Assembly (NCBI GenBank): GCA_050302075.1
Contig: JBNLAH010000001.1
Coordinates: 12,136-76,135, forward strand
DNA length: 64,000 bases
Source of the DNA: Parachlamydiales bacterium
GTDB lineage: Bacteria > Chlamydiota > Chlamydiia > Chlamydiales > SM23-39
Direction of reading: 5' to 3'
Notes under the pieces: generated by a model
Database searches by the model: none
Told to the model about the DNA's origin: nothing
What the model saw: the letters and a program-made list of their open reading frames with translations, nothing else
Program-made: the position numbers and the translations under genes
Shown here: positions 30,992 through 38,691 of the stretch, in pieces
How positions within the stretch are numbered: the stretch's first letter is position 1
Layout: every line of letters starts with the position of its first letter

Positions 30992-31053
30992 TGCCTAACA
31001 GGCTTATTTTCAATTGACCTTATCCAGTAACTTTAAAAAATATTTTTTTTCTA

Positions 31054-31089
31054 AAACCCTCCAAGCAGTAAAAATTGCTTGGAGGGTTT
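31054..31089. terminator. perfect 14-bp GC-containing hairpin, probable bidirectional terminator
   Basis: AAACCCTCCAAGCA-8 nt-TGCTTGGAGGGTTT. It is flanked by a T/A run on both sides (TTTTTTTTCT upstream, TTTC downstream). It sits between the convergent hemD and the 46-aa minus-strand ORF. Confidence 0.6.
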
Positions 31090-31167
31090 CTGTATAACCG
31101 TCGATTGTTGGTTTTAACTATAATATCGACCTTACTTATAGTTAATAATTTCTAGTCTATTCAAGAT

Positions 31168-31308
31168 TTAAGATATGTTCTTAAGCAGCTCCAATACTTC
31201 AAAAGCAACTTTTTGAGTAGTTGCAGAAATTGGTGTTTTAGAACTTTTTGGCATATCTTCTGGCATTACAGGTGCTGGTGTATTAGATGGGTCAAAATTT
31301 ACTAACAT
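31168..31308 (-). CDS. small hypothetical protein (46 aa), not in the ORF track
   Basis: Strong Shine-Dalgarno context AAGGAGAGTTAAGT-ATG. Translation: MLVNFDPSNTPAPVMPEDMPKSSKTPISATTQKVAFEVLELLKNIS*. It shares the GTTAAGTATG start context and weak sequence similarity with the 62-aa ORF at 32203-32391. Confidence 0.45.
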   Translation of the reverse strand: MLVNFDPSNTPAPVMPEDMPKSSKTPISATTQKVAFEVLELLKNIS

Positions 31309-31391
31309 ACTTAACTCTCCTTATTAAAAATTTAAATAATAGGTGAGAATTCTTTAATATAATTACTTTTTTGTAAACTTAAATAATTATT

Positions 31392-31757
31392 TTAAATAAT
31401 AAGGTTGCTGATTAGAGCAATTATAAAAATAATTCCAAGGATCCCTAATGTAGGATATAAGTAATATTTTTTCCTATGTTTAAGGGATTGAATAAGCATT
31501 TTCTTTTTTAAGTAAATAAAAACAAGCAAACTTGGAGTTCCAATCAAGGCCATCAAACCAAAAACTAAAAAAGGGTTTGTTACCATTTTTAAAATTCCAT
31601 ATCTATAAGCTTTTCCAAGAATTAAAAATGTAATAACGGCCAAAATGTGTATTGAAAGACTTGCCTTTTTGTTACTAGAAAATTTAGTGGCAAAAATAAA
31701 ATAAGTTGGAACCATTATTCCAATGATTAGAGTCAAAGTTATAAGTTCATTGTTCAT
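31392..31757 (-). CDS. hypothetical small integral membrane protein (about 4 TM)
   Basis: A 121-aa ORF with four hydrophobic segments separated by K/R-rich loops. CGGAGTTAA-ATG start context. Confidence 0.5.
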   Translation of the reverse strand: MNNELITLTLIIGIMVPTYFIFATKFSSNKKASLSIHILAVITFLILGKAYRYGILKMVTNPFLVFGLMALIGTPSLLVFIYLKKKMLIQSLKHRKKYYLYPTLGILGIIFIIALISNLII

Positions 31758-32202
31758 ATTAACTCCGAATTAAGATGAAAAACGCCTTTAATTTTTTATT
31801 TTTCTCCAAATGGATTTAAGAAGCTTAAAAGTGTATTTTAAGTCTACAAAAAATGAAAAAACAAAAGCTGATACTATGATAAATATTTTAAAGTTCATTG
31901 TTTAAAGCAAAGGTATAAAAAGAGAAAAAGCATTGTCTTTTGATGGAGGAAATCTATGGATTAGTTCTGCACTTCTCCACGCGCTAAATCTCCGATTAAT
32001 TTAATTTTCAATTTCTTAAAAGTGCTGAGAGATTTACATGTATTAAATTTTTTGTAAATGATAATTGTTTTTAAGATGATTGAAAGCAGGGAGAAATCCC
32101 TGCTTAAAGTAACTACTTCTTCGTCATATCTTTTCAAAAACCAAAGAAGTAACTTTTTTTAATTTTTAAAAAAAATCACGTTGGTTGTGCTAGGCATATT
32201 AC

Positions 32203-32391
32203 TTACCTAAAGCTAGCTAGACTCGTTTCATCTTTCGATGCTATAGTAGCTTTTTGAAGAGCAAATGCATCTAATGCTAGTTTCTTAATGGTAGTATTTT
32301 GACCCCCTGGGTTTACTGGATCATCCATTTGGTTTAGATCAAATGAATGAGCTGGTCTACAAATAGTATCATAATCTATCGGGAATGCCAT
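32203..32391 (-). CDS. small hypothetical protein (62 aa), possible paralogue of 31168-31308
   Basis: TAGAGGTTAAGT-ATG start context. Translation: MAFPIDYDTICRPAHSFDLNQMDDPVNPGGQNTTIKKLALDAFALQKATIASKDETSLASFR. Confidence 0.45.
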   Translation of the reverse strand: MAFPIDYDTICRPAHSFDLNQMDDPVNPGGQNTTIKKLALDAFALQKATIASKDETSLASFR

Positions 32392-32589
32392 ACTTAACCT
32401 CTATTTAATTATTCAAGGTGGTTGTTTAACTTTTCAATGTATAAAAAGTTATTGGAATTGTGCACGTGCTAAATTTTTTGTAAACGTTAAATTAATTTTA
32501 ATTTGAACTCTTTGGAGATATCTCAAAAAGGGTATTCAAAAAAAGAGAGCACGCCTATCATCTAACAAAAACTAAATGGAGAAATCGTT

Positions 32590-35328: not shown

Positions 35329-36054
35329 ATGGATCTTAAAATAAAAGATGTAGCCGAACTTTTAAATGTTTCTGAAACCACAATTCGTAGATGGCTATCG
35401 GAAGGGAAAATACCAGCTTACCGTATTAATCATCAGTTTAGATTTTCAAGGTCAGAAATTGAAGATTGGGTTATGAGCTGTAAAATGGAGTCGAAATCAT
35501 CTCAAGGGACTGATTCAAAAGTTCCTTTGCAGTCAGATAACATGAAAAAAATTGTTAGCAGGGCAGGGACTAGACAGTTTAGTTTATATAGAGCATTGCA
35601 CCATGGGGATGTCCTTTGTGACATTGAAGGAGCTACAAAAGAAGAGGTCATTAGGAATACTGTAGAAAAGATTTCTAGCAGATTAAATGTTGATGCAGAT
35701 GTTCTTAGTATGTTACTGCTTGACCGTGAAAAATTAATGCCTACTTCTCTAAACTATGGTCTTGCGGTTCCTCATACCAGAGATTTCTACATAAAAGAAT
35801 CATATGACACTATTTTTACAGTTTATCCCAAAGTTCCAGTTGATTATGGAGCATTGGACGGTAGTCCTGTTCACACTATGTTCTTTCTGTTTGCCTGTGA
35901 AGATAAAAGGCATCTTAATTTACTGGCAAAACTAGCCCATCTAGTTAATGAAAAACACACAAGGGACTACATTCAAACGAAGCCTGATAAAACAAGCCTT
36001 TTAAAATACATCAAAGACTTTGAAACAAAAATTCCTAATTTAGCAAGTTGTTAA
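35329..36054 (+). CDS. DNA-binding HTH (excisionase/MerR-like) fused to a PTS EIIA-2 domain
   Basis: N-terminus [48 protein letters not shown] is a classic HTH_17-type motif. The C-terminal half has EIIA-2 features with His ([11 protein letters not shown]). The track start 35263 adds 22 unlikely residues; ATG 35329 is preferred. Confidence 0.75.
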
Positions 36055-38531
36055 ACAGGGACTTTTTCTTCTTGTTCAATAAGTTTGATTTTTTCGTCTT
36101 CAACTGTAATCGTAATGTGCTTGCCATGCCCTTCAGATAATAGAAGTTTCTCAGATATAGGATCTTCAAGATACTGCACGATAACTTTTCGAATAGGTCT
36201 AGCTCCCATCTCAGGTTGGTAACCTTTATTCACTAAGAATTCGACAGTTTTTTCATCTATGTCAATATATAGATTTTTTTCAGCAACTCGATTTTTAAGC
36301 TTGTTAAACTCAATATGAATTACTTCTTTTAAAGCTTTTTTATCTAGAGGTTGGAAAATCACAAGGTCATCTAAGCGGTTTAAAAGTTCTGGTTTAAAGT
36401 GTTTTTTTGCAGCCTTTTGAATTTGTTCTTCAATATATTTAATATCTAAGTTTTCTTTAGCCCCAAACCCAACTTCTGATGATTTTTTCAACATATCAGC
36501 GCCAAGATTTGACGTCATAATGATAATGGTATTTTTGAAGTCTACTTTTCTCCCTAAAGAGTCTGTAAGCCTACCTTCCTCGAAAATTTGCAAAAATAAA
36601 TTTACAACATCAGGGTGAGCTTTTTCGACTTCATCAAAAAGAACAACGCTATAAGGTCTTCTTCTTACTCGTTCTGTTAGCTGGCCTCCTTCTTCATATC
36701 CGACATATCCTGGAGGAGATCCTGTCATTCTACTAATTGCAAATTTCTCCATGTATTCAGACATGTCAATCTGAATCAATGCATCTTCTCCGCCAAACAT
36801 ATGGATAGCAAGTTGTCTAGCTAAAAGAGTTTTTCCAACACCTGTGGGTCCGAGAAATAAGAATGCTCCTATTGGCCTGTTAGGGTCTTTAATATCAGCT
36901 CTTGAACGTCTTATAGCTTTGCATATTTTTGAGATGACATTGTCCTGTCCTATAACAGATTGCATTAAAAATTCTTCCATTTTTAATACTTTTTGAGTTT
37001 CTCCCTCGGTTAGTCTAGTCACAGGTATACCAGTTTGTTTAGCTACAATACGGGCAATATCTTCTTCAGTCACTTCAATTTCACTATCACTTTCTTCTTT
37101 TTTTTGCTGTTCCTTAAGTGTGACAAGCTGTTCAGATAGTTTTTTTTCTTTATCCCTAAAACGCGCAGCCTTTTCGTATTCCTGGTTTCCTATTGAATCT
37201 TCCTTGGCTTTTTTTGCTTCTTCAATTTCTTGTTCCATTTTTAAAATCTCAGGTGGTTGATGCATGCTTAAAAGCCTAGCTTTAGCACCAGCTTCATCCA
37301 TTAAATCAATGGCCTTATCCGGTAGGAATCTCCCCGAAATATATCGATCAGATAAATAAACAGCTTCTCTAATAGCTTTTTCTGTATATGTACAATGATG
37401 ATGTTTTTCATACTTTGGTTTAAGCCCCTTGAGGATCTCTTCACTCTCTTCAAGATTAGGGGGTGCAACAGTAATTTGTTGAAATCGTCGTTCAAGGGCA
37501 GCGTCTTTTTCTATGTGTTTTCTATATTCATCTTGAGTAGTAGCCCCAATGCATTGGATTTCGCCTCTAGACAGGGCTGGTTTTAAAATGTTAGAAGCAT
37601 CAATCGCCCCTTCAGCGGCTCCCGCCCCAACGATGGTATGAATCTCGTCAATAAATAGTAAAATATTGCCGTTCTTCTTAATTTCATCCATCACAGCTTT
37701 AATTCTCTCTTCGAATTGGCCTCGGTATTTTGTCCCAGCAATCATTAAAGTAAGATCCAAAGAGATTAATTTTTTATTTCTTAAGTTTTCAGGGACTTCT
37801 CCATTTACGATAGCTTGAGCTAAACCCTCAACAATTGCGGTCTTACCAACTCCGGCCTCTCCAATTAAGACAGGGTTGTTTTTTCTTCTCCTGCATAAAA
37901 TAAGAATTAGTCTCTCAACTTCTTCCTTCCTTCCAATGACAGGATCCATTTTATTTTCCCGGCATAGCTCAGTCAAATCATGCCCATAGGCCTTTAATGC
38001 AGGTGTTTTATCAGATCCGGTGCTTGACGATGGCCTTTCCTGCTGTCTAGTGGGAGGCGTCGCTGAAACCCCCATTGGAGGTAGCTGTAAGTTGAATGTT
38101 TCTAATTCTTTTAAGACTTCTTTTCTAACTTCCTTTAAGTTGATATTTAGGTTCTCAAGTACTTGAGCTGCAATTCCATCTGTCTGCCTTAAAAGGGCCA
38201 ATAACAAATGCTCGGTTCCGACATAGTTGTGGTTTAATTGAGTTGCCTCTTCATTTGCAAATTCAAATGCTTTTTTTACTTTACCGGTCAATGCAGGGTC
38301 ACCATATACCTGAATTTCAGGGCCATATCCTACAATTCTTTCAATTTCTGTCCTGACTGTGTCGTAATCTAAATTTAAATTTCTTAAGACATTAACAGCT
38401 ATTCCTTGGCCTAACTTCATAAGACCAAGTAAGACGTGCTCTGTACCTAAGTAATTGTGATTCAGTCTTTGAGCTTCTTTTTTTGCTAATTTAATGACCT
38501 GTTTGGCCCGATTGGTAAATTTGTCAAACAT
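36051..38531 (-). CDS. clpC: ATP-dependent Clp protease ATP-binding subunit ClpC
   Basis: Duplicated Clp_N repeats, two AAA+ Walker A sites ([15 protein letters not shown] and [15 protein letters not shown]) and a UVR-like linker ([16 protein letters not shown]). Confidence 0.93.
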
Positions 38532-38691
38532 TTGGGTCCATCCCTTCTTGATACGGCTACTTTTATAATGTTAGTTTGTTTTTATTTTTTTGTAAATTCA
38601 TGTGAGGTTTAAAATATACATTTTTTTTTAAAAAAATTCATCGATTAGAATGCTTTATTACAGTATTCTTTCTTAAATCCTGGAGTTTTAC

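Follow-up and report, generated by a model that had tools for sequence, protein, structure and literature searches.

We analysed a 64,000-nt stretch of DNA from an uncultured Parachlamydiales bacterium (GenBank assembly GCA_050302075.1, contig JBNLAH010000001.1, positions 12,136 to 76,135 of the forward strand), hereafter called the window, and within it an islet of small genes that lies between hemD and sodA (30992-32589). The G+C content of this islet is 0.287 compared with 0.337 for the window, which places it among the lowest 1.6% of 1.6-kb windows and bears out the AT-richness described in the initial annotation, which had been made from the sequence alone. The three minus-strand open reading frames (ORFs) of that annotation are all present, with lengths of 46 amino acids (aa; 31168-31308, here orf46), 121 aa (31392-31757, a predicted protein with four transmembrane (TM) helices, here the 4-TM gene), and 62 aa (32203-32391, here orf62), and each of them is annotated as a gene in assembly GCA_050304555.1 (contig JBNLDT010000001.1). 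Read along the minus strand, the islet consists of a promoter of a type that we call P1, the truncated orf62, and a terminator; a second promoter of the same type (P1'), the slot of a gene that appears to have been destroyed, a 36-aa ORF (orf36), and the 4-TM gene; and a promoter of a second type (P2), the truncated orf46, and another terminator. The initial annotation had missed orf36 and both terminators.

The same order of P1, 4-TM gene, and P2 is found on L088, a contig of 39.8 kb (Logan SRR28875812) that encodes a large terminase, a ParA protein, and a P22-type portal. In blastn searches, the P1/orf62 region (window 32502-32281) matched L088 4531-4750 with an E-value of 1e-17, as well as L089 2025-2227 (E 2e-16) and L092 5808-6022 (E 6e-10), two further contigs described below. 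P1' matched L088 4545-4610 (window 32064-31997, E 1e-5) and L089 2032-2110 (window 32073-31996, E 9e-8), the 4-TM gene (window 31766-31353) aligned to L088 4992-5408 with 72% identity (E 1e-69), and the P2/orf46 region (window 31402-31253) matched L088 5762-5902 (E 1e-14) and L089 620-733 (E 9e-11). The islet had been described as a duplicated promoter-plus-peptide module, and this is correct: it holds two P1 copies and one P2 copy, all of which are homologous to promoter-plus-gene modules on phage-like contigs. On L088, P1 precedes a 107-aa gene, which is followed by the 4-TM gene, a 117-aa DUF2059-like gene, and P2 with a 90-aa gene. Relative to this arrangement, the window lacks the DUF2059-like gene and has an additional P1-orf62 unit upstream.

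The Cys-rich family and its cassette

The genes behind these promoters on L088 belong to a rare family of 90-112-aa proteins without annotation that also occurs on L089, L092, L095, and L096. These Cys-rich proteins consist of a variable hydrophilic N-terminus, with the motif SFDPTNxDDPVNPG in subfamily 1 and MSVSFNP in subfamily 2; a near-invariant, moderately hydrophobic segment that starts with a basic pair, KKLxxGAxAxQ(A/G)AAMAP(K/R)AE(A/G); and a C-terminus that is hydrophobic and rich in proline, contains two or three CxxxC motifs, and usually ends in PTP. In the full-length proteins the basic pair, some 12-14 hydrophobic residues, and an A-[EDN]-[AG] site follow one another at a distance of 35-45 residues from the N-terminus. 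The 121-aa 4-TM proteins form a second family. The homologues P0005 (L088) and P0006 (L089-L091) are 62% and 58% identical to the window protein, have the same length, and share 57 invariant columns with it, and the family motifs NEL, PTYF, GTPSLL, KKKML, and NRKKYY are all kept in the window. A profile search of 1.84 billion representative proteins added only three members (P0007, P0008, and P0009), of 121-122 aa. Single-TM peptides resembling orf36, which we call mini-TM peptides, make up the third family and occur on L089, L092, and L096: L092 carries a 99-aa Cys-rich gene with a 43-aa peptide gene starting 2 nt after its stop codon, and on L089 a 43-aa peptide gene follows the 4-TM gene.

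Outside the window, 4-TM genes are known at four loci (L088, L089-L091, L095, and L096), and each of these has a Cys-rich family gene immediately upstream of the 4-TM gene. The linkage persists as the identity of the 4-TM proteins falls to about 30%, an argument for the two forming a functional pair, and the suggestion in the initial annotation of a peptide with a membrane partner fits these full-length relatives. Pfam, NCBIfam, and PHROGs gave no match for the full-length Cys-rich proteins, the 4-TM proteins, or the mini-TM peptide, and no significant match for orf62 and orf46, the two micro-ORFs. Queries of INPHARED phages and PLSDB plasmids with the Cys-rich and 4-TM proteins returned no match; a scan of IMG/VR with the 4-TM profile found none, scans of the same database with the Cys-rich family alignments found a single contig, and a scan of Joint Genome Institute (JGI) metagenomes found only the known L089-type locus.

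Several of the contigs that carry these genes resemble tailed phages or phage-plasmids. L092, the IMG/VR contig, encodes a P22-type portal together with YqaJ, ERF, and RusA proteins. L096 (Logan SRR23853039, 33.3 kb) carries a 106-aa Cys-rich gene, a 4-TM gene, a 39-aa peptide gene, and a 94-aa Cys-rich gene, with ParA and a P22-type portal farther along. The best PLSDB matches of the L088 ParA, with 57% identity, are on plasmids of Candidatus Rhabdochlamydia porcellionis and R. oedothoracis, and the next match is at 39%; the ParA of L096 is 68% identical to that of L088. L088 and L096 can be regarded, from their gene content, as candidate phage-plasmids of Chlamydiota. On L095 a YqaJ exonuclease gene is followed by a 103-aa Cys-rich gene, two tandem 4-TM genes, and, directly after these (2187-2676), two Tad2-like (Thoeris anti-defence) genes, whose proximity indicates that this cassette lies in an anti-defence or accessory region of a phage fragment. 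The P0006 locus on L089-L091 has a different setting and adjoins uvrB and two tyrP-type permease genes. The last 186 nt (about 61 codons) of uvrB are duplicated on L089 (1747-1932 compared with the 3' end from 2763) and flank a P1-100aa module, an arrangement that is also found on L094, and a further cassette lies beyond the second uvrB copy. This duplication resembles the outcome of one or two site-specific integrations at the 3' end of uvrB. Two other genes travel with the cassette and are absent from the window, namely the DUF2059-like gene (L088 5385-5738 and L089 243-596, 98% identical) and a gene for a protein of about 110 aa (L088 6174-6509 and L096 1970-2302).

Truncated genes and their promoters in the islet

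According to the family hidden Markov model (HMM), tblastn, and alignments, orf62 is a truncated member of subfamily 1 (SFDxxxxDDPVNPG...KKLxxxAFALQ). It scored 20.5-26.1 bits against the HMM (E 7.6e-6 among 21,463 six-frame segments), a value reached by none of 2000 shuffled sequences, and tblastn aligned it with 41% identity over 58 aa (E 1e-6) to the 107-aa gene directly upstream of the 4-TM gene on L088, with additional matches to the 90-aa gene of L088 and the 100-aa gene of L089. The N-terminal motif of the subfamily is present as HSFDLNQMDDPVNPG, and IKKLALDAFALQKA is retained from the signal-like segment. The end of that segment now reads TIASKDET, and the ORF stops where the MAPKAEAG motif and the CxxxC domain of its relatives would start. 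A search of 5.8 billion proteins recovered orf62 alone. At the DNA level its 3' half (32228-32300) is closest to the subfamily-2 gene of L088 (5943-6016, E 6e-4), and its 5' half and promoter are of the subfamily-1 type, with an 11-residue SKKSSWKIPS segment missing; orf62 may be a recombinant of two paralogues.

The second micro-ORF, orf46, appears to be related to subfamily 2 (MSVSFNP...), though truncated and diverged, judging by the DNA homology of its promoter, 5' untranslated region (5'UTR), and first codons. Its N-terminus reads MLVNFDPSN, and the homology to L088 extends about 55 nt into the coding region. The signal-like segment has turned charged (QKVAFEVLELLKNIS), tblastn gives weak matches to the same L088 and L089 genes as for orf62, and the sole homologue, P0003 of a sister lineage, is 85% identical over 39 residues with an N-terminus that is not conserved. 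Both micro-ORFs are missing the hydrophobic CxxxC C-terminal domain of the family and any other hydrophobic segment (the highest 13-residue Kyte-Doolittle mean is 1.05-1.10), and they contain one Cys (orf62) and none (orf46). A frameshifted Cys-rich domain downstream of them was sought and found in no frame. The likeness between the two peptides that the initial annotation had pointed out does not hold as direct similarity, since BLASTP found nothing at E<=100 and a shuffle test gave p of about 0.13, but their relatedness does follow from the full-length relatives and from the DNA homology of the upstream modules. Most likely, both micro-ORFs are relics that are still transcribed and that represent the 5' parts of genes of the two subfamilies.

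The 4-TM gene is intact and is preceded by a GGAG Shine-Dalgarno sequence. Upstream of it, between P1' and the 4-TM gene, lies orf36 (31788-31898, minus strand; MNFKIFIIVSAFVFSFFVDLKYTFKLLKSIWRKIKN), which encodes a short peptide with one TM segment and a basic tail and scored 14.8 bits against an HMM of the 43-aa L092, 43-aa L089, and 39-aa L096 peptides. None of 2000 shuffles scored as high, and orf36 was the best non-training match among the 21,463 segments, with an E-value of 0.026 that lends it moderate support. It is conserved in L005, a contig of the sister lineage, with 92% nucleotide and 86% amino acid identity. Both orf36 and the 4-TM gene may still be working. Within orf36 the promoter motif also recurs in inverted and imperfect form (GTCTACAAAAAA, 31825-31853, plus strand), with 78-79% complementarity to P2 and P1, and next to it there is a weak plus-strand promoter-like match (ATGAAA, 16 nt, TATGAT, 31853-31880); these could be an antisense promoter or a mere effect of composition. 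The slot between P1' and orf36, at 31899-31999 on the minus strand, holds only a GGAG sequence and an 8-codon GTG frame, with no ORF and no match to the Cys-rich family in any frame. Because this region is collinear with L088, where P1, the 107-aa gene, and the 4-TM gene follow one another, the slot would be that of a destroyed subfamily-1 gene.

The upstream regions of the window modules and those of their relatives align motif by motif. The P1 layout, which is found in the window twice (32000-32064 and 32426-32490, 72% identical, repeat D1), comprises an AT-rich TTAAAATAAT box, TTTACA, 16 nt, TATTAT or TAATAT, an A/U hairpin of 7-10 bp, and AGAGGTTAA-N2-ATG. It precedes orf62, the 107-aa gene of L088, the 100-aa gene of L089, and the 99-aa gene of L092, and diverged versions precede the 103-aa gene of L095 and the 106-aa gene of L096. 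The P2 layout consists of ATTTAAAATAATTA, TTTACAAAAAA, TAAAGA, and TTTAAA-TTTTAA followed by a Shine-Dalgarno sequence, and it precedes orf46, the 90-aa gene of L088, and the 112-aa gene of L089. In the window, P2 and its 5'UTR span 31309-31402 (minus strand), with TTTACAAAAAA at 31377-31367 and AGGAG as the Shine-Dalgarno sequence. As the initial annotation had recognized, the two micro-ORFs share the start context GTTAAGT-ATG, here read as GAG(A/G)GTTAAGTATG, and three TTTACAAAAAA elements lie upstream. The corresponding 11-mer TTTTTTGTAAA occurs at 31367, 32048, and 32474, and the window has seven copies in total compared with 0.81 expected. Three of the other four copies are intragenic, and the fourth precedes the start of an 826-aa clpB gene by about 55-65 nt (TTTACAAAAAA at 38586-38596, minus strand; clpB at 36051-38531). 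We therefore dropped the 11-mer as a cassette-specific regulatory site and regard it as a promoter-type -35 element plus A-tract; TTTACA with an A-tract looks like an ordinary promoter form in this genome.

The P1 promoter-like element of orf62 (32457-32484, minus strand) reads TTTACA, 16 nt, CACAAT and is supported by the DNA homology to L088, L089, and L092, but its -10 hexamer is degenerate, the phage copies having TATTAT or TAATAT at this position. Just 3' of this hexamer lies an A/U-rich 10-bp hairpin (32427-32451, minus strand; -7.3 kcal/mol, with none of 300 shuffles as stable), which probably sits at or near the 5' end of the transcript. Equivalent hairpins are present on L088, L089, L092, L095, and L096. 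We assessed them by comparing single-sequence folds with shuffles, and those of orf62, L089, and L095 were more stable than most or all of these; RNAalifold found no consensus structure for the P1 5'UTRs, in which the stems are all A-U. The stem on L095 is changed on both arms (UCCUUUU/AAAAGGA compared with ACUUUUU/AAAAAGU), which would suit a stem in RNA or DNA better than a protein-binding site of fixed sequence. P1' (32000-32064, minus strand), the element near 32047 that had been listed as a third copy, has TTTACA at 32058-32053, 16 nt, and TAAATC. It is homologous to P1 on L088 and L089 and is kept in L005, and its 5' hairpin has decayed to a stability no better than that of shuffles.

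Both micro-ORF units end in terminator hairpins. That of the orf62 unit (32084-32105, minus strand) consists of AAGCAGGGA, a loop, UCCCUGCUU, and UUCAAUC, and has a folding energy of -16 kcal/mol (z -3.2). The hairpin at the other end of the islet (31054-31089) is G+C-rich, has 14-16 bp, and is conserved in L005; with -25.8 and -26.1 kcal/mol and z-scores of about -8 on the two strands, it can, as far as folding predictions go, terminate both hemD on the plus strand and the orf46 unit on the minus strand. A search of Rfam with gathering and E-value thresholds returned only sub-threshold matches on the terminator hairpins and no tRNA. Because promoter, Shine-Dalgarno sequence, start codon, and terminator are intact, the orf62 and orf46 units are probably still transcribed.

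Probable origin and decay of the islet

The genes on either side of the islet are strongly conserved in their arrangement. The order radA-hemC-hemD and sodA-accD-dut is kept in about 60 metagenome-assembled genomes (MAGs) of Chlamydiota. The SodA protein of the window is at most 79% identical to that of any GTDB species representative, and its top matches are all from Chlamydiae/Chlamydiota MAGs. In the nearest sampled relatives by SodA (L008 and L009, 78-79% identity) only 65 nt separate hemD and sodA, and most of the roughly 60 MAGs show the same spacing. In the comparison of the junction among relatives that the initial annotation had suggested, none of the three families was found in the junction or its flanks at 80 Chlamydiota loci. 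The rest of the window contains no other phage genes and has no match to the phage loci. The junction itself, which usually measures 50-100 nt, has grown to 0.7-4.3 kb in about 16 of the roughly 60 MAGs (L015, L018, L019, L021, L025, L030, L032, L036, L038, L042-L045, L071, L076, and L079). The inserts are unrelated, lineage-specific genes, among them, as judged by eye, F-box-like (L021), LRR (L042), RING/U-box-like (L044), and AAA ATPase (L018) genes, and the junction looks like a recurrent insertion hotspot.

The sister lineage shows that the islet is in flux. P0003 is encoded on the metagenome contigs L002-L007. Over sodA, hemD, and the islet, these share 85-91% DNA identity with the window, and L005 covers the whole junction. 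This contig lacks window positions 32059-32497, and with them the entire orf62 unit; in place of these 439 nt there are 81 unrelated nt, which we considered as an orf62 remnant and found not to be significant as such. It also lacks 31424-31741, so that the 4-TM gene is reduced to a 17-codon stub, with its Shine-Dalgarno sequence still in place, made up of five codons from the start of the gene and some ten from its end. L005 has one TTTACAAAAAA copy in place of two in the window, and the orf46 unit is present. Among the three roles that the initial annotation had offered for the small ORFs, that of decaying gene remnants is best supported by these losses in the sister lineage and by the loss of the hydrophobic Cys-rich half from both micro-ORFs. 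Between the window and L005, the ratio of nonsynonymous to synonymous substitution rates (dN/dS) is 0.05 for sodA (51 changes), 0.17 for hemD (57 changes), 0.26 for orf36 (9 changes), and 0.34 for orf46 (11 changes), with the changes in the latter two too few to separate weak constraint from neutrality. The dS of orf46 and orf36 (0.21-0.23) is about half that of sodA and hemD (0.47-0.50), again with small counts, and constraint at the nucleotide level or a more recent exchange of the islet are both possible.

We believe, with a probability of about 70%, that the islet is the decaying remnant of a horizontally acquired accessory cassette of the "moron" type whose other carriers are tailed-phage and phage-plasmid contigs, some of which appear from their sequences to be linked to Chlamydiota. 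Acquisition from a mobile element would be the economical reading because of the 65-nt junctions, the absence of the families from 80 loci, the ParA host link, the uvrB duplication on L089, and the lack of phage matches in the rest of the window. Several points weigh against this overall picture. We infer rather than observe both the direction of transfer, from phage to chromosome, and Chlamydiota as the host of L092 and L095. The match of orf46 to the family HMM is weak (4 bits, with 16 of 2000 shuffles as high), and the AlphaFold2 model of the 4-TM protein has four helices at low confidence (pLDDT 53). In addition, promoter-like element, Shine-Dalgarno sequence, start codon, and terminator are all intact in both micro-ORF units, no other copy of the hairpin 3' of the -10 hexamer is as stable as that of orf62, and orf46 has been kept as an ORF in two lineages, with a dN/dS that is not significant given only 11 changes.

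These last features would also be expected of functional small proteins, that is, of family derivatives without the exported half that are expressed from the retained promoters, and the 85% amino acid identity of orf46 in the sister lineage points the same way. We nevertheless find this explanation doubtful, as orf62 has no counterpart in the sister lineage or elsewhere among the 5.8 billion proteins, its -10 hexamer is degenerate, the N-terminus of orf46 differs between the lineages, and the truncated form recurs in no other locus. At the other extreme, the micro-ORFs could be chance ORFs in AT-rich junk DNA, for which one could cite the non-significant pairwise similarity of the peptides and the lack of a close homologue of orf62. 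Such an origin is refuted by the profile match of orf62 and by the DNA homology and gene order shared with L088, to which the conservation of the 4-TM family at identical length can be added, and we give it practically no weight.

Two further explanations accept that the genes are real and differ in where they came from or what they do. Phages do capture host genes, and the family also occurs in a chromosome-like context beside uvrB and tyrP (L089), so that it might be an old chlamydial host locus picked up by phages, with the islet ancestral rather than acquired. This is improbable given that the family is absent from the junction and flanks of the 80 loci and that the nearest SodA relatives have a 65-nt junction; moreover, the L089 copy lies beside the duplicated uvrB 3' end, a typical trace of site-specific integration, and it is phage-like contigs that carry the most divergent and complete versions. 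The initial annotation had also considered type III secretion substrates, and Inc-like effectors belong to the same class of explanation. The host phylum is known to use type III secretion, and the micro-ORFs have hydrophilic N-termini with many S, T, P, and N residues. Inc proteins are marked by a bilobed hydrophobic domain of about 40-60 residues, a feature that the micro-ORFs do not have, and their homologues are phage-borne and match no Pfam or NCBIfam effector family, which makes this role very unlikely; there is nothing specific in its favour. Overall, the initial annotation was right about the duplication, its proposals of a membrane partner and of decay fit the evidence, that of type III secretion found no support, and an origin from phages or other mobile elements had not been foreseen.

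The intact form of the cassette can also be outlined. It encodes one to three paralogous proteins of 90-112 aa, each with its own sigma-70/66-type promoter (TTTACA, 16-17 nt, TATTAT-like, with a hairpin just 3' of the -10 hexamer in the P1 types) and Shine-Dalgarno sequence, a 121-aa four-helix membrane protein directly downstream of one family gene, and often a single-TM peptide of about 40 aa. The Cys-rich proteins are predicted to be exported or inserted into the membrane by means of the KKLxxGAxAxQAAAMAPKAE(A/G) segment, which is followed by the A-[EDN]-[AG] site, and the twin-CxxxC hairpin might afterwards function in the envelope alongside the 4-TM and mini-TM proteins. The likely role would be that of a toxin/immunity-like or superinfection-exclusion-like pair from which the mobile element profits, because of the moron-like architecture, the early or anti-defence (Tad2-like) neighbours, and the paired paralogues, and the micro-ORFs of the window would be relics of the 5' halves of two such genes. 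More speculatively, and with low confidence, the cassette may be a previously undescribed envelope system, consisting of an exported twin-CxxxC peptide, a dedicated 4-TM partner, and a mini-TM peptide, that is carried by P22-portal-type tailed phages and phage-plasmids infecting environmental Chlamydiota and serves toxin/immunity or superinfection exclusion inside the inclusion. If this is true, the window holds the chromosomal fossil of an infection by such a phage, and the cassette offers a sequence handle for finding tailed phages of Chlamydiota.

To our knowledge, the Chlamydiota phages isolated so far are Microviridae. The phage diversity of amoeba-associated chlamydiae has been described as little known (PMC5010888), and phage-derived genes, including terminase, have been reported on chlamydial plasmids (Koestlbacher et al. 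2021, PMC7846284). The shared cassette and the plasmid-type ParA would tie uncultured P22-portal phage and phage-plasmid contigs to Chlamydiota, and an orphan islet within a strictly syntenic housekeeping block would be explained as a fossil left by mobile elements that move through an obligate intracellular phylum. A decaying acquired accessory cassette is in itself a known kind of thing. What makes it of interest is the definition of three linked small-protein families without annotation (Cys-rich exported-type, 121-aa 4-TM, and mini-TM) and the link between P22-portal-type contigs and Chlamydiota. The value of the locus therefore lies in the family and the host link rather than in the micro-ORFs, the window copies being mostly relics.

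Comparison with known systems

One parallel is the group of phage-derived genes on chlamydial plasmids (PMC7846284), which likewise combines terminase and tailed-phage genes with a plasmid backbone and is linked to L088 through the 57% identity of its ParA. In contrast to these genes, the Cys-rich and 4-TM genes occur on no PLSDB plasmid, chlamydial ones included. From general knowledge, an analogy can also be drawn with the operons of Sec-dependent and two-peptide class II bacteriocins. As in those systems, short hydrophobic peptides that may form disulfides stand behind a signal-like segment, several cassettes have two paralogous peptide genes, and a small polytopic membrane protein is encoded immediately downstream. 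The cassette differs from them in the N-terminal extension of 35-45 residues before the signal-like segment, in having no transporter or processing gene, in the lack of Pfam or NCBIfam matches to bacteriocin, immunity, or holin-type curated families, and in being carried by phage-like elements of an intracellular bacterium.

At the level of single proteins, the spacing of the Cys residues (CxxxC, 9-20 residues, CxxxC) recalls the twin CX3C helical-hairpin proteins such as small Tim proteins and plant alpha-hairpinins. The analogy is one of sequence pattern. The segment in the Cys-rich family is hydrophobic and proline-rich, has a conserved PTP end, and shows no homology to those proteins. Similarly, orf36 and its relatives, with 36-43 aa, one TM helix, and a basic tail, are reminiscent of type I toxin peptides such as Hok, Ldr, and Fst as generally known. 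Unlike the genes of type I toxins, the peptide gene of L092 starts 2 nt after the stop codon of the Cys-rich gene, and this spacing suggests co-translation rather than antisense control.

A further comparison, from general knowledge, is with phage morons and the cassettes for lysogenic conversion and superinfection exclusion, for which bor and lom of lambda, sieA and sieB of P22, and gp15 of HK97 are examples. The cassette has no similarity to any described moron or PHROG, and the window holds it without phage structural genes. Like morons, however, its units are self-contained, with a promoter, a small gene, and a terminator, of the kind found in accessory or early regions of temperate phages; their products are small membrane or exported proteins, and copies and fragments of them are scattered in host chromosomes.

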